From Raja brachyura (Eukaryota): a stretch of DNA of 64,000 bases. The DNA is taken from positions 33,790,001-33,854,000 of the forward strand of contig OY740804.1 of NCBI GenBank assembly GCA_963514005.1, read 5' to 3'. This document shows, one piece after another, positions 1 through 63,869 of the stretch; position 1 is the first letter of the stretch, and every line of letters begins with the position of its first letter. The notes beneath the pieces are model-generated. The model made no database searches and had not been told where the DNA came from. It saw only the letters and a program-made list of their open reading frames with translations. The translations under genes and the position numbers were made by a program.

Positions 1-134
1 TTTCCATTCCTGTTTTTTAATCCGAGAATGAGGAAACCTGATCAGAGCGTCTTTTAGCTGGCATCAAGCAAACTAGTGCAAAACGGGGTAATCTTAGGAT
101 ATTCATCTATATATTGCAACTACTTACTAAATAA

Positions 135-331
135 TTCTGGAATAACTCAGCGGGTCAGGCAGCATTTCTGGAGAAAAGGAATAGGTGACGTATCGGGTCT
201 AGACCCTTCTTCAGTCTCGACGCAAAATGTCACCTATTCCTTTTCTCCAGAGATACTTTCTGTCCCGCTGAGTTGCTCCAGCATTTTGTGTCTATCTTCA
301 GTGTAAACCAGCATCTGTAGTTCCTTCCTAC
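135..331. mobile_element. Fold-back (head-to-head) Penelope-like pLTR fragment
   Basis: Inverted arms of the gggtctcgacccgaaacgtcacctattcc...ctgagttactccagc repeat; flanking direct repeat acttactaaataa at 122-134 and 332-344. Confidence 0.75.
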
Positions 332-1129
332 ACTTACTAAATAAATCTAGTTGGGTATTGAACAATTATATTGTTTTTAGATATCTATATATTTACCCAA
401 AGATTATTACATCTCATACATCAGCCATGTTTGTCATTTGAGCTCAGGTGCAGAGAATTATTTTAAATCAATTCTATAAATTTATTGGAGACAATTTATT
501 ATCCAAAATAATTCTAAATGAGTATCGGTGCTAGTTTTGATTACATTTTATGTTCATTACGTGTTTTTCCTCTTAAAAGGATACTACAGATGAATTCTAC
601 AACTGTAAAGAAATTAATTACATATAAGCTCTAGATTTAGCTGGAAAATTATTAGATCTGTTAATGATTTTGTTAATACACTTTTGGTTATCCCTCATAA
701 CTGAGGAAGGACTATTTTCTTTGCCAGAATAAAGTTTCCTCTGCCAGAATAAAGTGGTTAAAATCAAAAATGTGCCGAGTATGGATTTTGTCATAACTTG
801 CCCAAATGAAGCCTCTTTATTTTTTTTCATACTTGAATTTCTTTTGTTTCTTTGTATTCTAGTCTGTACAATTGATTTTGTTGAGGTTTATTGAGCTTCT
901 AAACTAAACATTAACATTACTGTAATTGTAAGTTATCGCACGTGACTTGTATACAATGTCGAGTTTATCATTCTTAATACTGTGGTTTGGGTTGTACACC
1001 ACAGTATTACGAAACTGTACTTAATTCTATGTTTCTATCTAGGATAGGAATCATTTTTTACCTTCAGAGATTCCTCTAAATAAAATGTTAATATAGAGTT
1101 TTTGACTCATTCTTCTCTTTTCTCAACAG

Positions 1130-1234
1130 GTGGCAGCTTTAGAGTTGGACAATATTTATGTCAAATGGATGCTTGGGATTCTGTCTGTGGTTCTGCTTGG
1201 TGTATTCGTTGTCCACAAGTTTTACAAATCTTAA
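1130..1234 (+). CDS. BAK1: BAK1 (Bcl-2 homologous antagonist/killer), last coding exon; upstream exons lie outside the window
   Basis: Polypyrimidine acceptor tcttctcttttctcaacag ends at 1129. The phase-0 exon translates VAALELDNIYVKWMLGILSVVLLGVFVVHKFYKS*, matching the human BAK1 C-terminus (VAALNLGNGPILNVLVVLGVVLLGQFVVRRFFKS) including the TM anchor and basic tail. Too short for the ORF track. Confidence 0.92.
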   Translation: MAALELDNIYVKWMLGILSVVLLGVFVVHKFYKS

Positions 1235-6715: not shown

Positions 6716-6803
6716 AGGGCTCGAAATTAGCGGTTGCCCGGGTGCCATTGACCACCCAAAGTGCCGCCGGGCAACCTAAACGCCGAGTCATTTTGCCCGG
6801 CTT
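6716..6803 (+). mobile_element. hAT-like DNA transposon 5' end fragment
   Basis: Abrupt GC-rich start CAGGGCTCGAAATTAGCGGTTGCCCGGG; no matching right end found. Confidence 0.4.
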
Positions 6804-7266
6804 ACTGATACTGTTTATACTGAAGATAGACACAAAAAAATGGAGTAACTCAGCGGATCAGGCAACATCTCTGGAGAAAAGGAACATGACATTTCGTGTC
6901 GGCGGCGTCTGTTTTGCGGGGCAAAGATACTAGATGCAGGGTGACGAAGGGTCGAAGCGAATAACTGGCCCCGCACAGCGGCTGCAGCAGCCGTGACAGC
7001 GGCTCCATCTCCTCCTCCCACACCCCGCCCGCCCTGAGAGCGGCCGCTGCTTGCCAATCCACTAACGGCGCTTTCAAAACAACCCCTCCCGCATGCCGAG
7101 GAGGGAGGGGGAGGTGTCCTTCCGCTGTCTGAAGCAGCTGCACCAAGGAGATCCCAACTGCCTCCCCCTTTGCCGGCGGCACTTGGGGTTGGACATGGAC
7201 GGCCAGGGCAGTGAGGCGATGTTGTCCAAGGAGCGCTGACCTTCCTTACTCCCCGCCTCCTCTGCC

Positions 7267-7359: not shown

Positions 7360-7758
7360 AGACCCCTCCTCTCCATCCTGCACTGATCCCCATCCCCGCC
7401 TCTATTCAGTCCTCACTGACATCCCCTGTGCTCCCCTCCCCATCTACCCCCCCCCCCCCCCCCCAATCTATTCATCCTGCGCTGATCACCCTATCCACTT
7501 TGCATTGATTCTTCTGCCACCCATCCAACACTGGTCCCCAAATTCATCCTGCACCAATCCCCCCGCCCCCCATCCATCCTATAGTGATCTACCCATTCAT
7601 CTTGTACTGATCCCCTCATTCATCCTGTACTGATCCCCTCCATTCATCCTGTAGTGATCCACCATTCATCCTGCACAGACCCTCCGATCCACACTGTACT
7701 GACCCCCCACCACCCCCCCCCCCCCCGCCATTCATTCTGCGCTGATCCCCATCCATTC
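7360..7758. repeat. Degenerate C-rich minisatellite (unit about ccattcatcctgcactgatccc)
   Basis: About 15 imperfect 20-25 bp units. Confidence 0.8.
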
Positions 7759-9099
7759 TGAAGAAGGGTCTCGACCCAAAACATTGCCTATTTCTTTTGC
7801 TCCATAGATGCTGTCTCACCCGCTGAGTTTCTCCAGCACTTTTGTCTAACGCCTTTAGACATTTCCTTGCAACCTGTATATTTGGTTATGGATAAATTAT
7901 GTGGGAAGCGAGAGTGTTTCTGTACCAATGGCAATAACGACCATGACTATGGCCATGCCATGGTAATTTTCGGTCCTTCACGGAAAACATGTTTGCATCA
8001 ATCTGTAGTATGCATGGTTAGAGTATATTATCGCACGCGTCATTCAAGCCAACTTAAATGACCACCTAAACTGGGGCACAGGGAAAGGCATGGAATGGAA
8101 GGAAGGGTTTATAGCATAGTTACCTAGTTTATAGCTTATTTAGCTAAAATTGAAGAATTCAGTGTTAATACTGTCAGAATGTGAGCTGCCCAAGCAGAAT
8201 ATGAGGTGCTGTTTCTCAAGTTTGTGTGTGGCTTCACTCCAGCAATGGTGGAGGCCCAGGACGGAAAGGTCAGTATGGGAATGAAAGTGGTTAGCAACTG
8301 GGAGATCCAGCAGGCCTTGGCTGACCGAACACGAATGTTCAGCAAAACAGTTAGCAAGTCAATTCTTGATCTTGCGAATGTAAAGGAGGCCACAGCGGGA
8401 ACACCAAATGCAGTAGATATGGTTAAGAGGCCTGTCTTAGCTGGGAAGTCTGCTGTGGTCCCTGGATGGATACAAGTACAAATCCACAAGTACTATTGGA
8501 AAATAGTGAGAGCATTGGCAAAGTTGAATTTGGAGATGATAAAAGCATGGCTGAGGTTTTCGATAACAAGTGTTGAGGCTCTGTAAAAGTGACTTGCAAC
8601 GTGGGATGCAATGTAGACTTGCTGAGAAGGTTAAAATGTGAGAGCAGATTGCAGCAAGAACAGAGAGCATCAAGATTGTGAACAGTCTGGTTGAGCCTGA
8701 ATTTGAACTGAAGGCATTTGAGTTGTTGGCATAAAAACAAAATTGTGCTGCAGTTAAACTGGTTTTACCAATATTTTGATGGAAATTTTAGCTTGTCCAG
8801 CGCTAGAAGTTGGAAAAACAACGGCAGTGTCAGGAGGGGAGAAGAGGGAGCTGATTTTTCACTTGTATGCAATCAATCTGTCCAAATGGCAGCTTCCAGT
8901 TGTGAAATGTTGGGCCAGGAGATATCCTTGAATGATGCTAAAGGTTCAGAAGTTATTCCTAATGAGCAGACTTCATAAAAATATTTGAATTAATTTAAAT
9001 CTTAAGGTATTGAGGTCAAATTGATGGATTTAATGGAATAGCTTTGCGTTCATTAATTTTCTAAGTCTGGGAACCCTGTGGGATTTGCTTCCTGGCAAT

Positions 9100-9555
9100 A
9101 TTCTGAAGTGTCAGTGAGGCCAAACGCGAATTGGAGGAACAGCACCTTGTATTTCACCTGGGCAACTTACAACCCAGCGGTATGAATATTGATTTCTTTA
9201 ACTTCAGATAACCCTTGCATGCCCTCTCTCTGTCCCTCCCCCTCCCTTGTCATTATACTAGTTTCACTGGCCTGGTGAGTTTCATTGTATAACTTGTTCT
9301 CACCTAGCCCACAGCTAACAATGAACCGCTTCCTTGATCATCCTTACTTTTTTTGCATATCTTTTCTTTGTTCTCTATCTCTCCATATCATTGTCTATCT
9401 CGTTTCCCTCTCCCCTGACTATCAGTTTTGAAGAAGGGTCCCGACCTGAAGAGTCCTCTCCAAACATGCTGCCATTCCTTCTCTCCAAAGATGCTGCCTG
9501 TCCTGCTGAGTTACCTCAGCATTTGAGGTAAACCAACATTTGCAGTTCCTTCCTC
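9100..9555 (+). mobile_element. Penelope-like element 3' fragment (end of GIY-YIG region plus pLTR)
   Basis: ttggaggaacagcacc...ctgggcaacttacaaccc matches the LEEQHLIFRLG region of the 63339-63671 ORF, followed by the pLTR. Confidence 0.75.
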
Positions 9556-11359: not shown

Positions 11360-14300
11360 CACCAAAACACTTGGGCCAGATGCATTCTATGGAAAGAAAC
11401 AGTTAGTAGTTCAGGTTGAGAACCCTTCATCAGAACTGGGAAAAGGAGAATACACATTAGTTTTAAGTTGCGGAGAGGATGGTGGTGGTCTGGGAGTGGG
11501 GCTGCATAGGACAAAGGAAATATCTCTGGTAGGTTGGGGCCAGGGTTACCATGGGCATAAGTTGTAGATCTCATTCTGTCATTGGGTTAAGTGGGTGGAA
11601 GGACAGACAAAGAGAGAGAATGAATGAAAGTTATAAGATGAGAGCAATTAGAGAGAGAGAGAGTACAAAGGAACACAAAGCTACAGAATGTAGTTCTGTA
11701 GTAGATACCCAGCATGTCAGACTGCCCATAGGGACAAGAAGAACTGAGCCAATATCACAGATGGGTGACTTGCAAAATGGACAGCTTTGGTGCGGAGGAA
11801 TTGGGTTTCCTGATGTTGTAAAATTTGATGTTGAGGCTGCAGTGTGCCCAGGCAGAGGATGAGATGTAATTCTGCGAGTGGGCCTTGTGCCACAGATCGG
11901 CCAGAGTGGGAGTGAGATAAAACAGAGGTTCAACATTGCCCCTGTGAATTGATCACAGATACTACACAAAGTGGTCATCCAACCCATGTTCGGTTCCTCC
12001 ATTGTACAGAAGGACACATTGTGAACACCGAATGCAGTTCGCTGGACTTGGAAAAGGGCCAGGGGATCACTGCTTCACTTGGAAGGACCTTTGTGTTGGT
12101 AGTTGGTGAGAAGTGGAGAGATAAAGGGACAGATTAGGCATGGCCTGCAGGAAAAAAAAACATAAGAATGGAAGTGTTTGGTGAGGCTAGAAGGGCCTGG
12201 AAATACTGAAAAGGGGAGGGAAAGATTACTCTGGTTGTGGAATGATGTTGGAGGTGGTGGAAGCTGTGAAAGGTGATCTGTTGAATTAATTCTGGTGGAC
12301 AGTGAGGGCCAGGGATACGTTTGTCTTGCTCTGTTCAGGAGGAGCGTTGGTGATTGCAGAAACGTGGGAAATATTTGAGATGTGGTCGAGGGCTTTGTCA
12401 GCTGCGGTAGAGGAGGCAAAGCCTTGCTTCAGAAGCAAGGGAGACAACTCAGCAGCACCTGATGTAAAGTCTTGTCATTGGAGAAAATACAAAGAGACGG
12501 AAGAACTAGGAGAAAGGAAAGCAGTCCTCACAGGAGGCAGGGTGGGGTGGGAGATTGCAACCTTGACGTGGTTCAAGGTTAGTTTATTTTGTCACATATT
12601 ATTGGGTGATTGCAACCTTGACGTGGTCCGCCCTGTTTCGACAAATGCAGTCAACCCGGCGTGCACAATTAAATAAGATCAAATAGAACAAGTCGTCCGA
12701 CAACTTTAGGCTGTGCACGCCATACGAAAGAAGGAGAAGGAGGCAGGGTGGGAGGAAGTATAGCCAGGGTTGCTAAGGGCTTGTACTGAATGTTTCTCAC
12801 CTATCTATCCCCTTGAGACAGAGATTCAAAATGGGACAGGGTCATGTGAAGGCGGGAGAGGGAGATTGCAGCAAAAGTCATGAAACATTTGTCCGAATAC
12901 AGGAAGCAGCATCAGTGCAGGTGGTGATATCCGCAGGGGGGAAAAAAGCCGAGGCAGGGTGTAAAATTAGGACTAAAATAAAGACTGCCTGACAAAAAAA
13001 GCAGTTATGCCAATGGTCCATGAGCATTTCTATAGCCACTGGAAAAAGTAAATGGAATTGAAAAACGTGAGAATTAGTTCAGCCGTGCGAATGACCCTGT
13101 TGATAAAGGGAGACTGGTTGTGTCTCTAATTAAGGAAGAAGCATGATGGGCGTGGATGTAGGTATGTTACAAAACTTACCTTTAGCAGTGCTGCAGTTCT
13201 GTCACTGGCCGTGTGCGCGACTTTTGGCGCTTGGGGGGGGGGGGGGGGGGGGGCGGGGTTAAAATGCGGTTTTCCCCTGCCATCCGGAATTATATTTTCT
13301 CGGAGGGCGAGCTTTTGCTAAAGATTCGTTCCGACTGCCGGTAAGTGAAATAGTTTTAATCGCCCGACTATTTCAGCGCTGCAGTAAAATAAAAATTAGC
13401 TCCTAATGCCGTGAACGCCGACAACGGGGACGGATTTTACGGAGGGGACAGGTAAATGAAAGCTGTTTATTTTTACATATAAACTTGTTTTTTTAGATGA
13501 CCTTAATCAACATTTCATGTTGTGAAACGATGATTTAGTCCCCATATGAACCGGCAGAATTTTTCCTGCCGATATGGGGTTTAAATTCACCGCAACCCAA
13601 CGTTCCAATCTATCGTGTTCCATAAAATCCCACTCGCAAGCTGATTTAAATGGCTATTAATCTGCAGGCATTAAACACTAAATTCCTTCAATTTGGCCTA
13701 TAAATGAATGACAATTAGATTTAAAAATCATGTTATATTGTGAATTCTTGTGTGAATGTTATTTGGACACTTAGGCTTATAAAAAAATATTAATATTTTC
13801 TTAAGAAATGGATAGATGTTTAGATCTAGTAATTGAATTTTGTAATTAGCTACAATTGGGTAACTAACTAACTAATTATATGCTTTAATTTCAGGTCATC
13901 CAAGTAAGATTGTTTCATATTTGTTTCAGAATGCTTCAATCTATAATAACTGAAAATTTCTTTCAGTTCTCTAAATTTTTAAGGAAGTTATGGGCTTTTG
14001 ACTGTCCTCGATCATAAACTTTTGTGTTAAGTCAATGGAAAAGCAATAGGGAACAAGATGCTAATATCCGAGTATGAAAATGGCCATAACTTTTTTAATA
14101 CTGAAGATATGAAAGTGAATTAGGTGTCAAATTAAACTTCTTTTTATGCTTTATCTGATGGGATAAATTGCAGACTTGATTTTTTTAATCTCAAAATTTT
14201 GTAACATTGCTAGTGGATGCGGCTATGAAAAGTGGCAGAGGGTACCAGAGGTATCACAGATGTAAGGGAAGGGACTGGACCAGAGGAGAAAGGAGAAATG

Positions 14301-14370: not shown

Positions 14371-16546
14371 CAGGTTTTCAGCATCTGCAGTGTTTTGATT
14401 TTCATTATCAAATGTCATTGCCTTGTGAAGTCTTGGTCTCGACAAACAGACTGACTCTCCAACATTATAAAGTGATCACATTACAAAAATGTGGAAATTC
14501 TGGGAAATGCAGAAAACATTGTGCGTCAGGCTGCTTTAGTGAAGGGAGAACCAGTTATCATGGAGACCTAGGAACTGCAGATGCAGAGGTACAAAAAAAG
14601 ATACAAAGTGTTGGAGTAAAAGAGACAAGGAGGAATTTCTTTAGCTAGACGGTAATGATCTGTGGAATTCATTGCCACAGACGCTGTGGAGGCCATCATT
14701 GGATATTTTTAAAGTGGGGATTGACAGGTTCTTGATTAGTAAGGGTAACGGGGAGAAGACGGGAGAATTGGGTTGAGAGGGAAAGATAGATCAGCCATGA
14801 TTGAATGTACCAAGTTTCTTCAGATAAATGTTGATACCAATCTTCACAAAGAGATGGTGATTCAGGTGAACTTAATGGAAGGGATAAGATACCATCCTAA
14901 AGGAGCGTGCGTTGGACAGGTTTAGTGAGGCCATTCTAGAAGGGAGACCTCAGGCAGCTGAACATATGCCTGCCAGTGCATGTGACTTAAGGTAGGGGAT
15001 AAAAGTGTGTTGTATTCCTGAAAATTAAAGAATGAAGAACATAGAACATTACAGCACGAGAACATGTCCTTCAGCCCACATTGTCAGCGCTGAACATGGT
15101 GCCGAGACAAACTTTTATCTGGCTGCACATAATCCATATTCCTCCATTCCCTGCATATCCACGTGCCGATCTAAAACCCTCTTAAATGGCACTTGGATCT
15201 ACCTCCACCACCAACCCAGGCAGACATCTCCTTTAAACTTTGTCCTTCTTAACTAAAAACGATGCCCTCTAGAATTTGATATTTCCATCCTCGAACAAAG
15301 GTTCTGTCTACCTTTTCTATGCCTGTCATCATTTTATAGCTTTTCCCAGCTCTCCCACAGCCTACGGTCTCTGCCTCTTCCTTTCTTCTTCCTGCCCCAC
15401 CCCCTGCACATCAGTCTAAAGAAGGGTCTCGACCCCAAACGTCACCGATATCTTTGCTCCATAGATGCTGTCTCACCCGCTGAGTTTCTCCAGCATTTCT
15501 CTCGATCTTTGATTTTTCCAGCATTTGCAGTTCTTTCTTAAACATTTTATATACTTCTATCAGTTCTCCCCTCAACCTCCAGCATTCCAGAGAAAACAAT
15601 CCAAGTCTGCCCAACGTCTGCTGGTTGCTAATGCCCTCTTAAACCAAGCATCATTCTGGTAAACCTCCTCTGCACCCTTTCCAAAGCTTCTACACCCTCC
15701 CTCTAATGTGGCTTTACAGTAGCTCTACCATGATCCTACATGAAAAGTGCTTAACACATGAGAAGCAAATCACTCCAAGGAGTGTCTTTTCGCATAATAT
15801 CAATAACGTCTCACAAGATACACAGCACTTATCCTTTTCTATCCTCTCTGGCACATTCCAAACGTCACACGCCACACACCATTCCATGAGAATTATACTC
15901 CTCATGTGCCACATTTTGATTATGATACAAACTAATCTTAAAGAAACTGAGAATGAAGGAGCAGTGCCACAGCCAGACATAAAAGCAGCTTTTTTCCCAC
16001 GAGCAGTAGCTCAACAGCCACAAGTCTGTAGCCTCTGTTTACTCTGGTACTTTATTTTCACATGTTTAAATTATAATGTTTTATTTTTAATTGTCTGATC
16101 TATATTGCATTTTTACCATGTGCATTGTGTTTTTACCATGTGCGAGCAAAGCACCACGTCAATATACATCCTTGGCTAATAAATTTATTCTGATTCTGAA
16201 AGTCCTGGAGGCTAAATGTCAGAAGCACATTCCAACCTGGCATGTTCTTTGACTGAAGCACAATGAGACTAAACCAACCTGAAACCTGTAGGATTGTTTT
16301 TACTATAAAGGGACAGAGCTCCACTCTAACAGAATGCACGGACAGTACATGACACTACAAACCACTTAAGAAGAATACTTATCATCTTTCCTTGATTAAT
16401 CTTACAAATCTATTGTGCTCATGAAAAATATTTGACAAACACAAACAGCCCAAATGTTGTTGAGTTGCGTCATAATCCTTTGACACAAGAAATTGTACTA
16501 AACACTTGGTTAATTGTGAATGGATCGGAGAGCAAATACTGGTTAG

Positions 16547-16640
16547 TCTGAAGAAGGGTCTCGACCCGAAACGTCGCCTATCTCCTTCGCTCCTTAGATG
16601 CTGCTGCACCCGCTGAGTTTCTCCAGCTTTTTGTGTAACC
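16547..16640 (+). mobile_element. Short Penelope-derived insertion with an intact minimal hammerhead motif
   Basis: CTGAAGA-agggtctcgaccc-GAAAC-GTC at 16548-16575; 8-bp direct repeat ctggttag at 16539-16546 and 16641-16648. Confidence 0.75.
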
Positions 16641-17864
16641 CTGGTTAGACAAGAACTGGTTTGTCTGATAACTACAAGTGAATTTTTTGAAGAAGATGTG
16701 AACCAGTGATTCCACACCTCAACATTTTTCTTTCCTTAAATAGGACCCCAAACTTCCTGGAAATCTATGGTATTTTTCTTGAAATTTTCAAAAAAAGCTT
16801 ACTGCGTGCTATTTGTTCTTGTGTTTCTTTCGAGGACCCACATTAACAACACAAAGAAGAAAAAGGCAAAACAGAACAAGGCAAACACCCTTTCCATTAA
16901 TAAACCATTTGAAAACGAACATTAGCAGACACAAATGTAGATCTAACAAAACAAATTGTAAATGTAGGCTACACAACTGCACTTATATTTTATTAGCGTG
17001 CTTCCAGCAATCAAACCCAGACAATGAACACAGCCTCTTAATATATAATATGGATATATAATACTATATAATAAAACAAGTGCGGATCTGTTGGGTCCCC
17101 CTCCCCCAATGCAATAAGCGAGTTCGGTATTCGGACTGCACATGCCCAAGTCAAAGGTCACTCTGCATAAACAGCCCTGGAAACCAGTAAAGCAGTGGAC
17201 CTTCATTTCTTCCATTTTTTCCAGCTTTGATTCTTCTAGGTAAGAAAATACTGCTTTCAAGCTGTGAAATAGTTGTATTTATTGTTCCTTTGTTAAAAGC
17301 AAAGATTATTTTGTCATTTTTATAGCTTTGTGCTTTGGTGAGTGAGCGAGATCGTGGTCGTCGGTGTCGGGCCCGGGTCGGTTGAGTTGCTGCTGGGCTG
17401 TCCCCGTCCCCTCCCGTCGCTGTCCGAGGGGGGGGGGGGGGGGGGGGCAGAGGTGTCGGCTGGTGCTCGGCTATCGTCGGCACCGGAGAGGTTGGCCGCT
17501 GACGGGCCCCGGCCTGTAGGAGAGCGGGGTTAGGCTGGAGTTGAGCAGCTTCTCCATGCTGACTGTGGGCCTGGGGCTACTGGTGTCATTGGTCCGGGGT
17601 TGTCGGTTGGCCTGGCGGGAATGGAGCTGTGGTTGCCTGCGGAATTCCATTGCTTTCCACTATTCTGCTAATTTCAAGGCAATGGAATTCTTCAGCTCAA
17701 CTCCCGCTAAGCAGTCAGCGGAGAGACAATACATGATTACAATCCAGCCATCCACAGTGCACAGGTACATGATAAAGAGAATAATGTGAAGATAAAGCCA
17801 GTAAAGTCCGATCAAAGATAGTCCGAGGGTCTCCAAAGAGGTAGTTCATAATTCAGCACTGAAC

Positions 17865-18355
17865 ACCATGCTCAGTCCGCCTAGGCTTATGCGATCTCCA
17901 GGTTGCTAAACACCTTAACTCCCCCTCCCATACTGACCTTTCTGTCCTGGGCCTCCTCCACTGTCAGAGTGAGGTCCAACGCACATTGGATGAACAGCAC
18001 CTCATATTTCACTTGGGCATCTTACAATCCAGCCATATGATATTGATTTCTCTAACCCTTGCTTTCCCTCTGTCTCCGTCCCTCCCCACCCTAGTTCTCT
18101 GACTAACTTCACTGTATTTCTGATTAATTTTACTGATTGTATACCTTATCACCTTCCCCTCAGCTAACAATAAGCCATTCTATATTTCCTTATCGTCTGC
18201 TTTGATCTGTTGTTTTCACACCTTACCCTTCCATATCCCTGGACTCCATCTCCCCTGACTCTCAGTCCAAAGAAGTGTCTTGACCCAAAATGGCACCCAT
18301 TCCTTCTCTCCAGAGATGCTGTCTGTCCCGCTGAGTTACTCCAGCATTTTGTGTT
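17865..18355 (+). mobile_element. Penelope-like element 3' fragment
   Basis: Homologous to the GIY-YIG C-terminal region (gatgaacagcacctcatatttcacttggg) plus pLTR. Confidence 0.75.
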
Positions 18356-18640
18356 TAACAGCTGGGAAGAAACTATCCCTGAATCTGGAGGTGTGCGTTT
18401 TCACACTTCTATACATTTTGGCTGATGGGAGGGGAGAGAAGAGGGAGTGACCAGGGTGCGACTCGTCCTTGATTATGCTGCTGGCCTTGCCGAGGTAGTG
18501 TGAGGTGTCAATGGAAGGGAGGTTGGTTTGTATGATGGCCTGGGCTGCGTCCACAATTCTCTGCAATTTCTTGCAGTCTTGGATGGAGCTGTTCCCACAC
18601 CATGCTGTGATGCGCCCTGATAAAACACTGCATGGCACGG
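18356..18640 (-). mobile_element. Rex1/Babar-like LINE 3' fragment
   Basis: ORF 18336-18638 contains AWCGN...KKLQRIV...SIIKDESHPGHSLFSPLPS...SRFRDSFFPAV, typical of Rex1 C-termini. Confidence 0.7.
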
Positions 18641-20281
18641 TAGTTTAATTAAAAACTTATTCAAAACAGTGTCCCAATCTTCATCTGACATTCTTTCTGC
18701 TCTTTTGAAGCCAGTGCCACAGGCTGGGGTTGGTCTCTGAGCACTGAGAATGGGCCCATACCCAGTCAGGTGAGAATTCTCTGCGAACCGAGGCAGCAAA
18801 TGTCAGTGAGTCGTACAACGACAGGACTACCACAACTAAACTCGACTATAAGAACCTAAACACTTGAGCAGAGCTTGGATGTTTGGCCCTTTGACCCTCT
18901 GTGCTATTTTCCTGCATTCCATATTGTTTGATTCCTTCAATGTACAGAAAATTAATTATCTTTGTTTTAAATGGACTCGGTAACAAGATCCCTGTGGTGT
19001 AGAGAAGTCCAATGATTTGCCACCCCCAATGCAAACGACCCTTCTCAATCCCAAATGGCCTACCCCATATTCGAAAACTGTGACCCCTGATTTTATACTT
19101 GTCAACCAGGGCATAGGTGCATCCACTCTGAATCCTACCTGTCACGCCCTGTGAGAATTGTGTCAGTTTTAATGAAATATCTTCTTCTAAACTCTAAAGA
19201 GCACCAGTCCCAGTTTACTCTCATATCACAGAGCAGGCTGTCACCCATGGAGAGACTAGTCTGAAGAAGGGTCCCAACTCGAAACATCGCCCATCGTTTA
19301 TCTCCAGAGATGCTGCCTGACCCATTGAGTTCCTCCAGCACTTTGTGTCTATCTTTGTCATCCATGGAACCAGTGTTGCGTCATTTTTAGTGTCTTGTCG
19401 TAGTTATCATTTTATAGATAAGAATACAAAAACTCTGCACAATCCTCAGAGAATTAATAAAGAAATAGATTTGTGATTCTCTCTGCAAAAATCGCTTTAT
19501 TTCCACTTCACCACTTCACAATAATTCATATTCAAATTCAAAGCCATTGAATCTTACCAAACTAGGAGAGATCTGTGAATTCTATTCTACAACTCAATAC
19601 AAGTCATTCACCAAATGTAGACCAAACCAAGTTTGCCCTAATTTCCTACTCTTTATTTAATTTCTATTTTTGAACAGTTCAATATGTCCAATCACGAGGC
19701 TGCTCTGCAAAACATTTTAAGCACCTGTGACCTAAATTCAAGACATTGTGACCTAAAATGCACCAAGAATTTCAATATGTGTTTAACCCACAGGTGGGGA
19801 AATTCTCATATTCTGTTCATTCTTCATACTTCTGGGATGAGCACGTTGCAGTAAATAGGTTGAATTGTGTTTGGCACAAGAAAAGTGGAAGCAAACCAGC
19901 ATTTGTGCTGGACATTTGATGTCACAAAGCTGAAGTCGCATCCTTTGCATTTTAAACCCTTAAAATACTCTGCTCTCTCAACTAGACATTATTGATTACC
20001 CATACAATGCTATAGACTCTGACATTGATCTGCATTATCAATTATGCTGTTTATTAATTACCACAACTTGCTACAGGGTCAAGGAAATGAATACATCTGT
20101 GTTTCTATGTTTCTGTCTGGTGCTTTCACTTTGATTGCTGTTAACCAACCCTAATAGAGCCATGTGTGAGGGCACTGGTTGAGGAAAGGTTCAGGCTTCA
20201 GTTCTGGTGCCTCGCATCACTTAGTTTAGTTTAACTTTGTCATTCCTTTTTGAGCATTGATGGCTGAGGGGTGATCTTATA

Positions 20282-20565: not shown

Positions 20566-22794
20566 GTCTCCCAGTAATCTTGTTCTCAGCTAAAGGGCAA
20601 ACACAGAACTGTACTTCAGCCAGCATCAACGTTCTCAAGAGCAGAAAAGAAAAAGCACGAATGGCCATGACAGAGAATGTACAATATAAATTCTGGTTCA
20701 CAGCCCTGCTGGTGCCCTGTACAGATCGTTCCATGGGTTTAGCAATCCATAATGTAGAATGCTGGCAGCCAAAGTCTTGTTCAAAAGCACATATCGTTGG
20801 CAAATTTGGCAACCTTCGACCTATGGTGCAGTGGAATTGTTTTATTGCACTGGGAAAGTATAAAGTCACAAAGCACACAAACAATATTTGCTCGTGGAAT
20901 CTAATTGCAACAAGAGTACGTGCCCCAGTATGGTAAAACGGACATTGTTAAAGGCATATGCAGAAAGGATAAATAAAGGAATACTTGTAACAATATTTCA
21001 GATGCTCAGTTGTAGGTTTATTTCAGAGATTTATTTTGGAAGTTCTCCAATAAATTACAATTAATTTACTGGATAATAAACAATACCCTTTCTAATTTCA
21101 AATGGATATCAATCGGCAGAACACATGAGAATAGCTGAGTGATGGATGTGATGGGATTATTGGATCTCTGTTCCTTGTGACACACATCTTTGGGCAACTC
21201 CAATATCTTGAAATTTGACATAATGGTTGCTTGGTATATTAAATATTTGTTGATACATTCCTTTGATCCAACACTTTTCTCTTGACATTTGTTTCTTGGT
21301 GGCCTGTGTGTGTGGCGTCCATGTCGTGTTAAGATGGCGGGGCCTCGCGGCAGCGGCCTCTGCAATCCGTCTGTCTTTTTTAAAAAAATATGTCCTGTTG
21401 AGCGTATAGTTTGGTTGTAGTTTATATATTGTTTTTAGCTGTGTATATGTGGGGGCGCGGGAAACTTTTAAATCTTTTTCCCTGTCAGGTTGCCACCCGA
21501 CTTCGGAGCTTTGGAGGCTCCAGCCGCAGGCCCGGTTAACAGTGACATCGGAAGCTCGCGGGTCCCTGGTGGGAGACCGCTTTTCGGAGCTCCCTCAACG
21601 GCAACTTCTCCCACCCGAATTGCAGGGTTGAAAACGACCCGGAGCGGGGTCTTACATCCCCACCGCGCGGCTTTTAACGGCCGCGGGACTTGCCATCGCC
21701 CGCCAGGAGAAGAATGGAAAACAGGGGAGAGTCAATGACTTTGCCTTCCATCACAGTGAAGAGATTCATTGTGATGGATGTTTGTGTTAATTGTACGTCT
21801 TGGTTTTTTTTCTTGTTGTATGACTGGATAAACCAAATTAAACTTCATTTGAGGTTCAAATGACAATAAAAGGTATTGTATTGTATTGTAGTGTGTTCCT
21901 GTCGTGACTGTGGGATAACAACAATACAATTGACTCAGAGCACAAGGTCTGTGGTAGATTGAATCTGGAATTTGTTGTGAACTGACTAAAGAAGGGTCCT
22001 GACCGGAAGCGTCATCTTCGCATTCCCTGCACAGATGCTGCCTGACACACTGAATTCCTCCAGCACTTTGAGTTTTGTTCAAGAATCCAGCATGTGGTTC
22101 CGCTTGCAGTGTATGTGACACATCACACGAGGGTGGTGTTTCCATGCAGTGTATCCAATTCTGTGACTGATTCGCTGTTGCACAGAGTGAATGGGCAACA
22201 TTTTGCTTCATTGCGGCTTTGATTTGAACCCACTCTAATCAGCGTGAGCAAGCTCATGTCTAATACCATCAGAGTAGGCCTTGCCCCAATTCAGAATTTT
22301 AACTTGTGGGCCCACCATGCCTTTATCCATAACTATTTTAAAGCTGATAAACATTGGTTACTGGTCCCAACAGACTCGCCCACTGCCACTTTAGACACGT
22401 GCCTTTCCCAATGTCATGAGAGTAGATCAAGCTTTACCCTCCCCTTTGTAGGGCCCTCTACATATTGCCTGAGGAAACCTCCCTGAACACATTTGACAAA
22501 TTCCACCCCGTCTAAGCACTTGGCACTATGACATTCCCAGTCTATATTGGGAAAGTTAAAATCCCCTACAATGACAACCTTATTAGTCGTGCAGCTGCCT
22601 GCAATCCCCTGGCATATTAGTTCTTATAATTCCTGTTTAGCATTTGGGGGGGGTCTGTAGTACACTCCAACAAGGTGATCATCCCCTTTTTATATTTCAG
22701 CTGCACCCTACAGCCTCATTGGACCAACTCTCAGTAATGTCGTTTTGGACAACCGCCATGGCATTCTCCTTAGAGCAGCATCCCCCTCCCCAAA

Positions 22795-23172
22795 TAGACA
22801 CAAAATGCTGGGGTAACTCATCGGGACAGGCAAAGGATGGGTGACGTTTCGGGTCGAGACCCTTCTTCAGACCGAGAGTCAGGGGAGAGGGAATCGAGCT
22901 ATGGAGGGTGAGGTGTGAAAACGACAGATCAAAGGGATGAGGTTCAAGGAATATGTAGAATCTTTTCCTCTTCATTCCCTTTGATAACTCGTTTTCACAT
23001 CTTACCCTTCCATATCTCTTGTTTCCCTCTCCTGTGAATCTCAGTCTGAAGAAAGGTCTCGACACGAAACATCACAAATTGCCTCTATTCAATGCTGCCT
23101 GTCCCGCTGAGTTACTCCAGCATTTTGTGTCTTTCTTCGGTGTAAACCAGCATCTGCAGTTCCTTCCTACAC
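22795..23172. mobile_element. Fold-back Penelope-like pLTR pair; intact hammerhead motif on the minus strand (22843-22870)
   Basis: Inverted arms; the minus strand reads ggt-CTGAAGA-agggtctcgaccc-GAAAC-GTC-acc. Confidence 0.75.
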
Positions 23173-27258: not shown

Positions 27259-27284
27259 AGAGACCTTTGCTGGAATTCGGGCCT

Positions 27285-39141: not shown

Positions 39142-39392
39142 GTAAGTGTCAAACTCTATGCACTTGGTGCTCTGCACCCTAACCTTCAGATTCTAATGCG
39201 GACTAACTACTAAAAGCTGTAAAACCTAATCTGTAGGAAGGAACTGCAGATGCTGGTTTACACCAAAGATAGACACAAAATGCTGGAGCAACTCAGCGGA
39301 ACAGGCAGCATCTCTGGATAAAAGGAATGGGTGATGCTTTGGGTCGAGGCCCATCTTTAGGCTGAGAATTAGGGGACAGGGAAACGAGAGGT

Positions 39393-40213
39393 ATAGAAAC
39401 ATAGAAACATAGAAATTAGGTGCAGGAGTAGGCCATTCGGCCCTTCGAGCCTGCACCGCCATTCAATATGATCATGGCTGATCATCGAACTCAGTATCCC
39501 GTACCTGCCTTCTCTCCATACCCTCTGATCCCCTTAGCCACAAGGGCCACATCTAACTCCCTCTTAAATATAGCCAATGAACTGGCCTCAACTACCCTCT
39601 GTGGCAGAGAGTTCCAGAGACCCACCACTCTCTGTGTGAAACAATTCCTTCTCATCTCGGTCCTAAAGGATTTCCCCCTTATCCTTAAGCTGTGACCCCT
39701 TGTCCTGGACCTCCCCAACATCGGGAACAATCTTCCTGCATCTAGCCTGTCCAACCCCTTAAGAATCTTGTAAGTTTCTATAAGATCCCCTCTCAATCTC
39801 CTAAATTCTAGAGAGTATAAACCGAGTCTATGCAGTCTTTGTTCATAAGACAGTCCTGACATCCCAGGAATCAGTCTGGTGAACCTTCGCTGCACTCCCT
39901 CTATGGCAATAATGTCCTTCCTGAGATTTGGAGACCAGAACTGTACGCAATACTCCAGGTGTGGCCTCATCAAGACCCTATACAACTGAAGTAGAACCTC
40001 CCTGCTCCTATACTCAAATCCTTTTGCTATGAAAGCTAACATACCATTGGCTTTCTTCACTGCCTGCTGTACCTGCATGCCTACTTTCAATGACTGGTGT
40101 ACCATGACACCCAGGTCGCGCTGCATCTCCCCTTTTCCTAATCGGCCACCATTTAGATAGTAGTCGGTTTTCCTATTTTTGCCACCAAAGTGGATAACCT
40201 CACATTTATCCAC
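39393..40213 (-). mobile_element. CR1/HER1-like LINE 3' fragment inserted inside an inverted Penelope pair (39228-40400)
   Basis: ORF 39491-40333 VDKCEVIHFG...[21 protein letters not shown]; very similar to 35213-36020. Confidence 0.92.
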
Positions 40214-40303
40214 TTGAAGGTAAAGTGTGAAAACGAGACACCAAAGGAGACAAAAGGGGAAAAGACAATTTCCTTGATCTTCGTCCCCCTTTGATCTCTC
40301 AGT

Positions 40304-40331
40304 CTGAAGAAGGGTCTCGACCCGAAACGTC
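40304..40331 (+). ncRNA. Minimal type-I hammerhead ribozyme motif (Penelope pLTR), sense to APOBEC2 intron 1
   Basis: agt-CTGAAGA-a-gggtc-tc-gaccc-GAAAC-GTC-act; 5-bp stem II, 3-bp stem I; activity not shown. Confidence 0.65.
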
Positions 40332-40705
40332 ACTCATTCCTTCAATCCAGAGATGTTGCGTGTCCTGCTGAGTTACTCCAGCATTCTGTCTCTATCTCCC
40401 GTAAAAACTAAGCTGCGCTCCGCAGTTTAAGATTCTCGCAAAGGTAATCCACCGCGATCACATTGCCAACTAGACCATCACCCTTCTTTCCTATCTCAAT
40501 ATAAACTGCACCTACACCCTCACGATCAGCCTCGTTGGTTGGATTGCCCCACTCGCTTCCTCCCTCAGCGACTGCATTACTGCTGTCTACATTGTGTTGA
40601 CATGTTGGGAACGAGGAAAACGTAGATACAAATCTGACCAAAAACAGCTATAGGTTGAATGACCACTGCTACAGTATTTGACTTTATTGATAAAGGGATA
40701 ATGTA

Positions 40706-42707: not shown

Positions 42708-43479
42708 GTCAGTTCCACAGCTGGTGGATCTGCTGCCTCACGGCATCAAAGACCCAGGTTCAATCCTGACCTTGGTTGCCGTCTGTGTCAAGTTGCACGC
42801 TCTCCCTGTGGCTGCACGGGTTTCCTCTGATCTGGTTTCCCCACATCTCAAAATGTGCAGATTGTAGGTTAATTGTCCTCTAGAAAATTGTCCCTATCAT
42901 GTAGGGAGTGGATGCCAAAATGAGATAATGTAGAACTAGTGTGAACGTTTGTTCCATAATCGGCATGGAGTCAGTAGGACAAAGGGCTTAGAGTCATAGA
43001 TTCAAAGTGATACAATGTGGAAACAGGCCTTTCAGCCCAACCTGCCCTCACTGGCCATCATGTCCCACCGACACTAGTCCCACCTGCCCGCATTTGGTCT
43101 ATATCCTTCCAAACCTGCCCTGTCCATATACCTGTCTGTTTCTTAAATGTTGGGGTAGTCCCTGCCTCAACTACCTAGCTTGTCTGAAAAAGTTACCCCT
43201 CAGTTTGCTATTAAATTTTGTCCCCTTCACCTTAAATCTCTGTCCTCTGGCTTGTTTCCAGGCATGCTGCATTTTTCAATCAATCTATGTGTAGGATGTT
43301 CAAATAAATATTGAATATTAAATTAATATTTGAATATTAAATAGGGACACATGAAACACGAAATGCTGGAAGTTTGAGCATAAAACAAAATTCTGGATGA
43401 ATGGAGTGTGTCAGGCAGCCTCTGTGGAGCGATTGAAAAGATGACGCTTTGGGTCGGAAGCATCCTAGACTGGTTGAGT

Positions 43480-56145: not shown

Positions 56146-57907
56146 CTTACAGCGCTTGCAGCGGCAGAGGCCCGTGTTCGATCTCGACTACGGGTGCTGT
56201 CTGTACGGAGTTTGTAGCGTTTTCCCACATTAGGTTTCTCTGAGATCTTGTTTCCTCCCACACTCCAAGATGTACAGGTTTGTAGGTTAATTGACCTGGT
56301 ATGTGTAAATTGTCCCTAGTGTTTGTAGGATAGTGTTAATGTGGGGGGATCACTGGTCAGTGCAGACTCGGTGGGCCGAAAGGCCTGTTTCTCTAAACTA
56401 AACATGCCTTGTATTTCTTTGAAAAAATCAGCGGTGTCAGCTTTTGTAGGGTGAACAGGCCAAGGAATGAAATACTGCACATCAGGGCAATCCAGGCAAC
56501 ACTGCAATGAGGATGGAAACTGTTTTAATTATGCGGGAGGAAAGAACTGTCTGCAATCAGCACCAATTTAATCCACGTATAACTATCTGGCCAGGAACAT
56601 TTAGCAAATAAGTGTGTGATTCTGCACCTGGAAATTAATCTACTAGCAAACAAACAAAGACTAATTTCGTCCTGCAATCCATCATGGATAATGTACTAAG
56701 GCACTGCTGCTTGTCTGAGCCTGGAGGTCACATGTTCAAACCTTATTTCAGGGACTTCAGCACAACTGCAATCCCAAGAAAATCTCTGCATTGTCAAAAT
56801 TTAAACAACTGTCATGTGACCATAACTCAATGCAAGCTCAACGAACAGCAAGGGACTTGGAGTCCTGATGGATATTAATCACTCTATCAATAATCACTAT
56901 CAGAATTAGGCCACAGAACACGTCAAAAGCCCTACTTGCTAAACTCTACCAATATTGCCTATTAACTGTTATATGTAAATAACTGTATTATTTCTCTTTA
57001 TTATAGAATATTCAGTGCTTTTAAAGCCAAATACTTCAACTCCATTTGGCACAGTGGGGACATCGGGGAGAGAAACCAAACTCATATATTTTATTTCACT
57101 TGGACTGAACTGAGAGATTTGCTTTTGCTTCTCATCGTGCATCACAAGATTATTGAACATGTTCTGATCGTCTGCTACTTCAGTTCATAGAGGGTAGCTA
57201 AAGTGATATGTTCCAATGAAGGGAAAGTTCTAAGCTACCCAATAATGAGCGGAACATGTCATAGCGTAGGTTTGGAATAAGGTAATAAAAGGTTGTTTCT
57301 GACACAGAATGCCACTGTTATGTAGTGAATATCATTACGCTATATTTAGTCTCCAAAATACATCCTGCTACTTTGTGCTATACAATAAAACATTGGCTGT
57401 ATTTTTGTGCTGCTCATTTCTTTCATTTGAAGTGCAAATGTCTCTGCAGGCATCTCATCTCCAAAGACCAGTCATAACTAAAATTTTAGAACCCTGATTT
57501 CAGGATTCCCAATAGGATAGAAATTAAAATCCTATGATCTACAAAAAAAGTGAATTTCACACCTTTCAAGTTGTTTAATTAATCAATAACCAACCTGTTG
57601 AGATGATTACCTTTATACCACCTGTACCACATCTAAGACGGACGCAAAAAGCTGGAACAGCTCGGTAGGTCAGGCCGCATCTCTGGAGGAAAGGAAAAGG
57701 TGATATTTCGGGTCGAGATCCTTCTTCAGACTGAGAGTCATGGAGAGGGAAACGAGAGATACGAAAAGTTACAGAGAACAGATGAATGAAAGGTATGCAA
57801 AAGGGAAATCAAAGCTAGCAACAATGTTCAAAGAAAGGTGGAGCCACATTGCTCCATCGTTGGCTGTGGAGGTGATAGCGAGTGATACAGTGAAATTATG
57901 CAGGACA

Positions 57908-58222: not shown

Positions 58223-60758
58223 GTGAATAGTACAACAACTAGGGTAGAAGATGTGCAGAGAAACGGGAGATGACAGGGTTACTAGGAAGTTGGAGAAATC
58301 AATATTAATACCGCTGGGTTGTAAACTGCCCAAGCGAAATATAAGGTGCGGTTCCTCCAATTTTCATTTGGTCTCACTCTGACCGTGGAGGCCAGGACAG
58401 AAAAGGCTGGTTGGGGAGGGGAAGGAGAGTGGGGAGAAATAAATCACATCAATGTTCTGTTGTATGACACTATCTCTGCACACCTGTGTTTTTAGCATGA
58501 CAGAAAAGCGATGAACTAGTTAGAACATGTATAAATTATACAGTGTTCAAACTAAAAGTTACTTGAGCTAAAACAAAATATGTTATACCAGATGTTCAAG
58601 TAATCAGCCTTGTGCTTGATTTCCAATTTATGTTAGCATTCTCTTCAGATTATAACATAATAATAAGGACAATATTATTGCAAGGATAACCAAGATTATG
58701 GGTAGTGATATTTGCTCTTTGTTACCCCGTGTTATGGACCTGTGAGGTTCACTGTGCTGGTCCAGTTGCCTTGGAACAACTACGTTCCAAATTAAAAATA
58801 TTTGCTTGATTTCTTGTGGCTGTTGTTAAGGAGGTTCACCAGGGTACACGTCCATGACTGTCAAATAAGATTTCAATCAAATTTTGTAGTCAGTGCACAT
58901 TAAAAGTGTGTTTCGTAACCTAGAAAATATAAAGATACAGTTGATTTGCGCTCGTGCAAAGAACAAAGGATGGGTGATCAAGCATGTTAATATCAAAAAC
59001 CCTGGTTGGCAGAGAATGATGTGTGGATGTAGAGGCAGGTGTCTTCCTTCATTGCCCTAGTGAGACAAAAGACAAACTGGGGAACCTTGTATTCTGCCTG
59101 GGTAGCTTGCAATTCTATGGCATGAATATTCTCCTGCACCCCCTTTCCCTTGCACCCAAAGCCCGTGTGCGCATATTTGCCCACCACCATCTCATTCCAA
59201 CACACAACCATCCACTATTTTTCTTTCATTCCCGTTCCTCTCTCCCTATCTCCTCCGAAACAGATCCCTCCCTCGAGATGCACATTTCACTTCTCTTTTT
59301 ATTAAAAACCCTTTTCATCTCTAGACACCCCACCCATCAGACATCCACCCCCCAACTGCATCCAGGTATGATTTGGCAGGGTTTACTCCTCTTTTCTAGC
59401 TCCCCCCGTATGCAGATCACTGAAGATGGGTCCCGCCCCGCAACGTTCCCTATCCATTCTCTCCACAGATGCTGCCTAACCCACTGAGCTCCTCCAGCGC
59501 TGTTTTCTTTGATACTTAAAAGAGATGATTGGTTTCTTTCAATACGATGAAGACTTAACTTTAGGACGCAAGCTACTAAATAAAATAAAACAATGGACTG
59601 GATTTAAATAGAGAGAAGAGAGTAATTTAGAAAATGAACAATCCAAAATTAGTCATTTTCTGTAGGAAACAATGATTAAAAGATAATATTGCAAAGCTGA
59701 GATTGCTAAAGAACTTGATTTTATGGTACAATAGATTACTTATGGTATAAGATTATTAATATCAATAAGGACGGCCACAGTGGCGCAGAGTTGCTGCCTT
59801 CCAGCGCTTGCAGCGTCGGAGACCTGGGTTCAATCCTGACTACAGATGCTGTCTGTAGGGAGTTTGTACGTTCTCCCTGTGACCACATAGGTTTTCTCCA
59901 AGATCTTCGGTTTCCTCCCACACTCGAAAGACTTATTTAAATGTATGTAGATTAATTGGCTTTGTGTATGTGTAAATTGTCCCTGGTGGTGTTAATGTGC
60001 GGGGATTGCTGGTCGGTGCAGTCTCGGTGGGCCGAAGGGCCTGTTTCCATGCTGTACCACCAAACGAAACTAAATACAATTTCCTAATAGCAAGAATGCC
60101 AACATGGCCCCCCCAAGAACAATGTCAGAGCAGAATTCAGAAGAGAAAACACAACTGTACAGAACTTGATATAACTAATTTTAAACAGCGCATGTTTGGA
60201 AATACATTTCCTTGAGAAGCAAGGAAAACTGTTTGTCAGATGCTACAAAAGGGAGTTGAACAAGTTTTTGATTTGATATCATTTATAGACAGCAAATTTA
60301 ATTTCTTGCTGGGCAAGATAGATTAAGTAAAATGTTTACAGCTCCCATCAGCAAATGGTAATGTTCACTCCAACTTTTTTTTTCATTTGAGCCCAAGCCT
60401 GTACCACTCTAAGGGAATATGGAGCATCCTGTATCTTCTGTTTTGTAACCAAATTGATTTCAGAGAATAAGAACTTATAGATGGATTAGCGAAGCAGTGG
60501 TTGATCTCCGTGGATTAGAAGAATCTGATGTTAAAGTTAAGATATAGACGTAGATAGAAACAGTTCTTATTTCCAAGTAGGGTCAAGAATAAGGTGAGGT
60601 AGAATGAAGATGGGGAAAATCCAAATGTGTGAGACAAGGGGAAAAATGGTTAATGAAGCATAACTTCAGAGTCTAGAATACACTGCAGATAAATAACTGG
60701 AAGGCAAGAATTAAGACTACAATGAAGACCAGCGGGATTGCTCTTACAATTACCCTGT

Positions 60759-61428: not shown

Positions 61429-61464
61429 CTGTACTAAATGAATGACCCCCCTCGTGAGTTGTAA

Positions 61465-61710
61465 AGGGCCTGTCCCACTTAGGCGAATCTTTAGGCGACT
61501 GCCAGGGACTAGTTTGAATGGAATTCACCTACGACACCTGGCGGCAACCTACGACTGCACCTACGACAACACCTACTACAATCTACGACCCATGACAACC
61601 TACGACAGTAAAAATTGTCGCCACTGTCACCGAACATTTTTCAACATGTTGAAAATTTTTGGGTAGTCGCCTGTAGTTGCCAAAAAAATTGCTTAAGTGG
61701 GACAGGCCCA
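61465..61710. mobile_element. PIF/Harbinger-type MITE (second subfamily)
   Basis: TIR (a/t)gggcctgtcccactta; TAA TSD (61462-61464, 61711-61713). Confidence 0.85.
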
Positions 61711-63139
61711 TAAGCATTCAAGTCTGGAAAGGAATAATATTTATAGGCAGATACAAAAATAGTTTGAGGTGTCAACAATATTTCAACACACGTTTTGTTG
61801 GTAAGACCGATCTTCAGATACACTATAACACCACATCATTAGTGTCTGGACAAACAAGACCACATTAGACTGATAATCAAACAAGAGTTATCTATATGCA
61901 GCTGCACGGCAAAATTGCAGCTTAATCATACCATACTTCATAAAACAAGAAGCTACCAGTCCTTATAAATGTAAAATTCACACAATGAAAAAAGTCTAAA
62001 ACATCTGTAATTCTAGCTTGCTGCAAGTCATTTTCTAGACCAATTTCCTGATGCAATTTTCATTTTCTTCAAGGCCCATCATTTTGTTATTCAATGGCTC
62101 CTGCCATCAAATGCTTCTCAAATTAATTTCAGTCTCCTCCCTAACGTGCTATATTGAGGGGAACGTGTTTCCCCTCATTATAATTTAATTTTGATTGCAA
62201 TTCTACTGTTTCACCTTGCATATTCAAACTTTGATCTGTAGTCAGATTTTGGCAATGTATTTAATGAGCATTGATGGCGTACTGGGTGACCTTACCTGTG
62301 GGGTTAGCAAGTTGTAATGGGCAGACAGCCGAACAAATGCTGAATCATTCCATGTCTATTAGTAGCAGTATCAGTTTACCAGAATAGCTGGCAACTCCTT
62401 CAAGCCAGCAGCATGCTGTCAATATTTTAAATAGAACTGAAAAACGTTGAGATTAAAGAGATAGTGGTTACATGGAAGCTGTATGGCTAATGTTCAAAGC
62501 AGACATTAGTGGTCAGGAAATGTTTTCAGACTCAGGGAAAATAGTGATGTTTCCTAATGGCCATTATTGGAACTACTGTTGCATTTAATATATTCTTAAT
62601 TTGCAAAAACAATAAACTTCAAACTCTGCAGGCAAGACAAAACTCATACAGTATATTGACTATACTAAGATCTTCAGACTGAAGTAATTGGCTTGGGAAG
62701 GGGAGGGATTAGGTTTCACAGCAATGTTTTGTAATTCATTTGTATATTGCCTCATCTATTTCAACAATACAAAACTATGTTCAATGATAGATTGGAACAG
62801 GGGTCTTAGACGCAGATAAATAAGTCTCTGAAGTTGGCAAGCAAAACATCAGGCTGTTGGAAAAATGGCAGAGTCCTTCTTTACTGAACGATACATGCTA
62901 TATAAAAAGATATTAAACTTACGCAATACTGGTGCTGGCAGATCGTTTAGACCAGTTTAGGAAAGTATAAAAGTTTTACTAGGTGTGAGGGCTGTATGAC
63001 TGTTATTAAAGTGGAGAAATAAAATTGAGACATTTTGATTATCAAAATATTAAAGTGAGGAATAGAGCTTCAAATCATGTGGTTGTGAACGAGCCTGCGA
63101 GATGTTTCCAATTGCACAAAGATTGATATTTAAGGCAGT

Positions 63140-63869
63140 CAAAAGTGCTGGAGAAACTCAGCGGGTGCAGCAGCATCTATGGAGCAAAGGAAATAGGCAA
63201 CGTTTCGGGCCAAAACCATTCTTCAGACTGATGTAGAGTAGGGGGGGGGGGGGGGGGGGGCGTGGAGAAGAAAGGAGAAAGGAAGAGGAGGAGCCCGAGG
63301 GCTGAGGGAGAGCTGAGAAGGGGAGGAGACAGCAAGGGCTACCGGAAATTGGAGAAGTCGTTTATGCCACAAGGGTGCAAACTGCCCAAGCGGAATATGA
63401 GGTGCTGCTCCTCCAATTTCCGGTGGTGCTCACTCTGGCCATGGAGGAGGCGCAGGACAGAAAGGTCGGATTCGGAATGGGATGGGGAGTTGAAGTGCTG
63501 AACCACCGGGAGATCAGGTTGGTTAATGCGAACCAAGGTGAGGTGTTCGCCGAAACGATCGTCAAGCCTACGCTTGGTCTCACCGATGTCGATCAGCTGA
63601 CATCTAGAGCAGCAGATGCAATAGATGAGGTTGGAGGAGATGCAGGTGAACCTCTGTCGCACCTGGAACAACTGCTTGGGTCCTTGAATGGAGTCGAGGG
63701 GGGAGGTAAAGCGACAAGTTTAGCATCTCTTGCGGTTGCAAGGGAAAGTGCCCGGGAAGGGGGTGGTGCGGGAGGGAAGGGAAGAATTGACCAGGGAGTT
63801 ACGGAGGGAGCGGAATTTGCGGAAAGCAGACAGGGGGGGAGATGGGAAGATGTGGCGAGTGGTGGGGTC
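63140..63869 (-). mobile_element. Penelope-like element 3' part: GIY-YIG endonuclease plus pLTR with hammerhead motif (63199-63226)
   Basis: ORF 63339-63671: FTCISSNLIYCICCSRC..IGETKRRL..RFGEH..HFN..RKLEEQHLIFRLG; followed by CTGAAGA..GAAAC GTT. Confidence 0.9.

Follow-up and report, generated by a model that had tools for sequence, protein, structure and literature searches.

A 64,000-nt stretch of the Raja brachyura genome (assembly GCA_963514005.1, contig OY740804.1, positions 33,790,001–33,854,000, forward strand; hereafter the window) carries dispersed short repeats that bear a minimal hammerhead ribozyme motif and derive from a Penelope-like element (PLE). A preliminary description made from the sequence alone had reported a recurring motif in about 20 copies. 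The motif is real: the exact 28-mer occurs at 16548–16575(+), 22843–22870(−) and 40304–40331(+), and all of the degenerate sites named earlier were located. A DNA profile built from 15 window copies gives 22 matches in the window, 19 of them spanning the motif (Table 1), and 0 in the reversed window. A structural hammerhead descriptor has 6 matches in the window versus 0 in each of 100 dinucleotide shuffles. The motif is exact in 3/19 motif-spanning copies, and 5/19 pass if wobble pairs are allowed. Repeat units are ~100–130 bases each. An Rfam search with E values of up to 5 allowed returned no hammerhead family; its top matches were microRNA (miRNA) models on inverted pairs, far under gathering scores.

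The exact 28-mer has 50,608 matches in the 2.70-Gb genome, and its backwards-sequence control has 0. Eighty blind 10-kb stretches (800 kb) were used as a random sample, in which the profile gives 370 matches, 239 of them spanning the motif. The very high density first put at about one per 3 kb thus holds across the genome, at one copy per 3.3 kb, and extrapolates to ~0.81 million motif copies (bootstrap 0.66–0.96 million). From this sample 19.1 motif-spanning copies are expected per 64 kb and 19 were seen; the window is therefore typical, without enrichment. Descriptor-perfect copies number 49 in the sample, or ~165,000 genome-wide by extrapolation. Head-to-head pairs hold 194 of the 370 matches.

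The parent element was reached through a 126-aa frame at window positions 63342–63719, which drew 116,613 first-look candidates; tracing its relatives led to full-length copies (L191–L200). These consist of a repeat, an open reading frame (ORF) of 1,191 aa counted from the first Met, and a second repeat, and six that were compared are 96–99% identical. The long ORF has a proline-rich N-terminal insert, a YIDD motif of the reverse transcriptase (RT), a CX4CXXC linker and, at the C terminus, a GIY-YIG region with CCHH (linker and CCHH seen in the L191 and L194 translations). Pfam matches to it are weak and under the curated cut-offs (RVT_1 E 5e-4, GIY-YIG E 2e-3), and comparison with solved structures gave no match. 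The window endonuclease piece has no Pfam match at 1e-3 (E 0.12 in another scan) and was confirmed instead through the full-length ORF, to which its linker and GIY-YIG region (63360–63881, −) is 82% identical in amino acids. By the motif definitions of Craig et al. 2021 (PMC8557442), the parent is a young Neptune-type Penelope element; this placement uses motifs only, and Nematis has a linker motif in common. Endonuclease-bearing (EN+) Neptune PLEs share with the ray element an RT followed by a C-terminal GIY-YIG with CCHH, a CX2-5CXXC linker, partial tandems, inverted truncated copies and an optional 30–40-bp tail.

The Penelope origin first proposed for the repeats is upheld; the hammerhead-and-tail segment sits in the pseudo-long terminal repeat (pseudo-LTR), on both sides of an intact RT–GIY-YIG ORF. 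In L191 the motif lies 243 nt past the stop and 163 nt ahead of the ATG. Endonuclease remnants occur 110–250 nt upstream of at least three window copies (9428, 18267 and 63226) and ~500–560 nt upstream of those at 11433 and 57729. A GIY-YIG ORF does precede the motif at 63226(−), but the motif begins ~113 nt past its stop and not directly after it; this motif has a GUU triplet and one stem II mismatch. A distinct non-autonomous family is not supported: one window copy matches the autonomous element at 100% identity, and three or more copies trail endonuclease remnants. A divergent Penelope endonuclease remnant (54% aa) was also seen at 8158–8424(−), with no motif copy detected downstream.

Positions are numbered with the C of CUGAAGA as 0, which places the predicted cut between +27 and +28. 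The end map uses 87 distinct copies chosen by tail and blind to the motif; they come from the first 90 among 56,237 places at which a tail 30-mer of the young family matches exactly. Their 5′ ends concentrate at −7 to +8 (55 copies, peak at −3 with 14); 2 lie at −150 to −8, 23 further upstream and 7 at +17 to +37, with only 1 at +28, the GUC cut site. Their 3′ ends fall at +86 to +96 (57 copies) and +125 to +131 (24 copies), so that 81/87 lie in two clusters ~33 nt apart, at about +93 and +126. Among the first 100 matches listed for the sequence after the cut site, 98 run on into the motif and 2 resemble inverted-arm junctions. The near-absence of ends at the cut site indicates that the templates were uncut, and an origin of the 5′ ends by cleavage was rejected, with 1/87 young copies and 2 among the first 100 listed matches starting there.

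Among 30 informative solo copies, 17 carry a G immediately ahead of the 5′ end, against 7.6 expected (p=2.5e-4), as do 8 of the 11 that start at −3. Among the first 100 listed, the base before −3 starts is G in 46, A in 39 and T in 15 (G expected 28%, p=1e-4); before control position 0 it is G in 23/100 (30% expected). Untemplated G at LINE-1 and SVA 5′ ends has been interpreted as cap copying (PMC4859970). Thirty copies bear the ORF start, and 28 of them are short and break off after 22–595 nt of the ORF, which shows that priming takes place near the 5′ junction. Eight of the 30 begin at −6 to +3. One full-length copy, L193, begins at −3 and sits within a target duplication. A splice acceptor was rejected as the cause of the 5′ hot spot: eight solos starting at −1 have no common upstream exon, and four directly abut the target duplication. 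The public sequencing runs that contain the unit consist of contigs, mostly of guessed type and from several organisms. In two of these runs depth over motif and tail is ~10x that of the ORF end, a figure that says nothing on expression or on ends; GT-AG joints were not found. Elsewhere, L074:2579–3248 is a head-to-tail array of about ten 66-bp units of the tail segment without the hammerhead core.

The repeats are the hammerhead-and-tail segment of a Neptune-type Penelope pseudo-LTR, and we consider it likely that most short copies are run-off cDNAs from the 5′ end of an uncut, probably capped RNA. Transcription would begin at the A of CCAGT, 3 nt ahead of the core. The CCAGTCT at this start agrees with the initiator consensus, YYANWYY, with its A at −3. 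The element endonuclease would nick the target, and the RT, like that of the Anolis element, would prime at one or the other tail site and run about 97 or 130 nt to the 5′ end of the uncut RNA. The ends of two run-off cDNAs may then fuse, often by way of the palindrome at the first bases of the core; many pair junctions lie at the palindrome around −4 to +4 or go through microhomology. Priming at the 3′ tail would yield longer truncated copies. Selection probably keeps the hammerhead in master elements, where it would cut weakly, as a dimer or with protein help. Work on the Anolis element reports that priming is internal, at two sites of the tail, that both strands are extended and that the main substrate in vitro is uncut RNA (PMC11167929).

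An RT stall or template jump at an RNA structure could instead produce the 5′ hot spot, all copies then being ordinary truncations primed at the 3′ tail. Such an origin would suit the pair junctions at palindrome or microhomology and a predicted fold that pairs the CUGAAGA box with the tail end, but the fold of the 136-nt unit is not significant against shuffles (z −1.34), stalling gives no reason to expect an extra G at −3, and short copies extending into the ORF start exist; we judge it quite unlikely. In the L191 3′ repeat, the predicted pairing joins the CUGAAGA box (0 to +10) to the tail end (+115 to +125), beside the second priming site, and this modelled pairing could hold the ribozyme off.

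Units propagating like short interspersed elements (SINEs), with an internal promoter and transcription of their own and copied in trans by Penelope protein, would produce the same 5′ and 3′ ends. Motif copies exceed ORF remnants ~9 to 1 in the random sample (239 vs 27), the Drosophila virilis Penelope promoter is internal (PMC2377424) and repeats act in trans in rotifers (PMC3846280), all of which would fit. This origin is nevertheless unlikely: the copy at 16545–16642 is 100% identical to the autonomous element, the 28 of 30 ORF-start copies that are short pieces required an ORF-bearing template, and a subfamily made of short units only was not demonstrated.

Several observations weigh against the run-off account itself. 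The RNA start site and the cap are inferred from DNA junctions. The first-100 lists, counted by eye, also take in junctions of inverted arms and long copies with mutations, and A is nearly as frequent as G before −3 starts. A target duplication of at least 8 bp was found in only 14/42 solos; 9 of these 14 have no extra base and 4 have an insert ending in G. Seven of the 30 ORF-start copies have their 5′ ends upstream of −8, and L193 alone begins at −3 among 10 ORF-length copies mapped near the ORF start, so read-through RNAs served as templates too. The subfamily test of the core described below uses related consensuses derived by k-modes, and a stem I of 2 bp may lack the strength for any cleavage.

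The motif has the anatomy of the published minimal type I hammerhead, as first described. The CUGANGA and GAAA boxes and the UH triplet (GUC, or GUU in some) are invariant in eight subfamily consensuses. An extra base between 9 and 10.1 and a G10.1–C11.1 pair are present, stem II has 4 bp and a YYCG loop, and stem III is a loop-less ACGU palindrome with a predicted self-duplex of only −3.5 kcal/mol. The subfamilies are 8 of 10 k-modes clusters, a singleton and a CpG-decay cluster having been dropped; variable columns number 0/11 in the core versus 20/57 in the tail (p=0.026), and stem changes among them retain pairing (U-A to U-G, stems I and II). Stem I of the young family has 2 bp, and the third pair is A-C in 97/127 random copies. 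The two 3-bp examples offered earlier as covariation (agt..act at 40304, ggt..acc at 22843) are therefore private mutations, each a single change from the consensus A-C mismatch. An older family (L313–L342; CUGAUGA, GUU, 4-bp stem I) has 52 pattern matches genome-wide. Its stem I pairs are kept in 27, 28, 20 and 19 of 30 copies; the search pattern fixed the 5′ TT of stem I, and the 3′ strand lay outside it. Its G-C pair stays in register through a matched one-base loss on either side, and this register-keeping change is the better candidate for stem I covariation.

The young-family motif might no longer be a ribozyme and be conserved, where the transcript starts, as core promoter or as a sequence bound by protein. 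We find this improbable. Stem I, 4 bp in the old family, has shrunk to 2 bp, and the motif would occupy transcript positions +1 to +31. Its ACGT would then lie near the downstream promoter element position (PMC2377424), but all 11 core positions are fixed across subfamilies, stem changes preserve pairing, and the Anolis motif cuts once protein is added (PMC11167929).

Conservation of the core above its flanks thus holds among the subfamily consensuses, but inserted copies show little excess. Non-CpG changes in random inserted copies affect 100/1,790 core positions (5.6%) versus 450/6,430 tail positions (7.0%; p=0.037). G12, which lies in a CpG, is changed in 52/177 (29%) versus 29/172 (17%) for tail CpG. 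The core is kept in 74/180 spanning random copies, and core, stem II and stem III together in 40/180. Inserted copies decay near-neutrally and are mostly dead. It is very improbable that the dispersed copies are working retrozyme-like ribozymes whose dimers cut host or element RNA and which spread by way of circles. The ~165,000 descriptor-perfect copies, a same-strand neighbour within 400 bp in 70/370 random matches and the slightly lower non-CpG decay of the core would be in keeping with that, but few copies are intact, G12 decays at the CpG rate, almost no ends lie at the cut site and same-strand copies in the window are never nearer to each other than 994 bp. The activity measured in published work is low (PMC4209133), and 1/9 frog dimers cut (bioRxiv 10.64898/2026.07.22.740005).

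Minimal hammerheads in Penelope repeats have been published, for the most part as copies that are single or on opposite strands, and their dimers show low activity (PMC4209133; PMC6765202), and solo and inverted Penelope repeats have been described (PMC3846280). The ray motif shares with the minimal hammerheads of metazoan PLEs (Cervera and de la Pena 2014, PMC4209133) the boxes, the extra base 9/10.1, G10.1–C11.1, the loop-less palindromic stem III, the pseudo-LTR location and the mostly single or opposite-strand dispersal. It differs in its stem II of 4 bp with a YYCG loop and in its stem I, which in young families has 2 bp, like that of D. virilis, versus 4–5. Copy numbers here (~165,000 descriptor-perfect and 0.8 million in total, both extrapolated) exceed the 4,000 in coelacanth and 9,000 in Xenopus (PMC4209133), a rough comparison because the descriptors differ. 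Anolis Poseidon PAc (Frangieh et al. 2024, PMC11167929) also has a hammerhead at the repeat–ORF junction, no sign of ends at the cut site, and two internal priming sites bounding a 30–40-nt tail, matched here by the two 3′ clusters. Unlike in PAc, where the ATG is inside the core, the ray ATG is 163 nt past it, and the CX4CXXC linker is lacking in Poseidon. The parts of the PAc account that were consulted do not describe a 5′ hot spot that is fixed and has an extra G. Animal non-LTR retrozymes, reported in one chondrichthyan (bioRxiv 10.64898/2026.07.22.740005), are likewise non-coding, pseudo-LTR-related, hammerhead-bearing and present as evenly dispersed monomers. They are defined by tandem arrays, whereas the ray copies are solos or head-to-head pairs with ends off the cut site; no tandem arrays of hammerhead-bearing units were found in the window. 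One supplementary file of PMC4209133 has no shark or skate entry. Titles and abstract openings outside subscription papers and Repbase gave no start-site run-off origin and no ray or shark family. The family belongs to a known class and has a very high copy number, and what is added here is the end map.

Table 1. Penelope-derived hammerhead repeats in the 64-kb window
Feature	Coordinates	Strand	Details
Head-to-head inverted pair	124..335		124-218(-) motif copy joined to 214-335(+) copy starting in stem II; spurious Rfam miRNA hairpin matches
Partial copy starting within stem II	6820..6901	-	Profile
Short copy, GAAA box decayed	7754..7848	+	Profile and descriptor
Truncated element 3′ end	9113..9552	+	Endonuclease remnant 9113-9205, 3′ untranslated region (UTR), decayed motif at 9428, tail
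Older-family motif CUGAUGA with upstream ORF remnant	11406..12541	-	Motif 11406-11433; ORF remnant 11944-12541
Long-tailed copy, both boxes decayed	15410..15575	+
Intact 98-nt mini-copy (-3 to +94)	16545..16642	+	100% identical to young full-length element; in 8-bp target duplication (16539-16546 and 16641-16648)
Endonuclease remnant, then decayed motif copy	17872..18362	+	Remnant 17872-18024; motif copy at 18267
Short copy, boxes intact, stem III C-G lost	19256..19357	+
Short copy, old and decayed	21982..22079	+
Head-to-head pair with some 3′ UTR	22789..23166		Intact motif 22843-22870(-), decayed motif at 23046(+)
Short long-tailed copy, cleavage triplet lost	29559..29690	+
Short long-tailed copy, G-U at 10.1-11.1	30912..31040	-
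Head-to-head inverted pair	37906..38124		37906-38032(-) and 38023-38124(+)
Decayed copy including part of 3′ UTR	39237..39395	-
Copy with exact motif	40298..40398	+	Motif 40304-40331
Partial copy, old	43377..43465	-
Decayed copy with 3′ UTR	57634..57802	-	Endonuclease remnant 58286-58390 may belong to same copy
Short copy, GAAA box decayed	59419..59515	+
5′-truncated Penelope end	63137..63881	-	Stop 63339-63341, 3′ UTR, motif 63199-63226 (GUU subfamily), tail

Within the inverted pairs, 158–262, 22858–23059 and 37971–38089 have sub-threshold scores against miRNA and small nucleolar RNA models, and such pairs are a likely source of false small-RNA annotations. The window also contains one long APOBEC2-like coding exon at 48320–48898(+) (Pfam APOBEC2 E 2e-61), which is probably its host gene. 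A broken retroelement at ~24300–28000, which we take to be DIRS-like, has an RT at 24712–25404(−) (RVT_1 E 1e-10) and a recombinase-like frame without a Pfam match at 27259–27975(+). Many long interspersed element (LINE) RT fragments, presumably CR1-like, were seen (35348–36538, 39491–40333, 43437–45292, 53164–54504 and 61138–61524), among which 35777–36538 matches RVT_1 at E 3e-25.

The role of the hammerhead in Penelope elements has been stated to be unclear (PMC8557442). One tentative answer, which we hold possible but somewhat doubtful, is that transcription begins 3 nt before the hammerhead and places the ribozyme on the mRNA cap, so that cutting would decap and silence the RNA while uncut RNA would give the 97–130-nt “strong-stop” insertions. 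If true, the ~0.8 million insertions would preserve, like fossils, the start site, the two priming sites and the uncut state, and would explain why minimal hammerheads are strewn through animal genomes as solo copies and inverted pairs. A young vertebrate family with an intact ORF and tens of thousands of near-identical short copies provides exact in vivo end maps. These maps indicate that the inserted RNA was uncut and probably started at the ribozyme, and the decapping switch and the run-off origin become testable. Counts of “genomic ribozymes” in such genomes mostly tally dead by-products, whose inverted pairs mimic miRNA hairpins.

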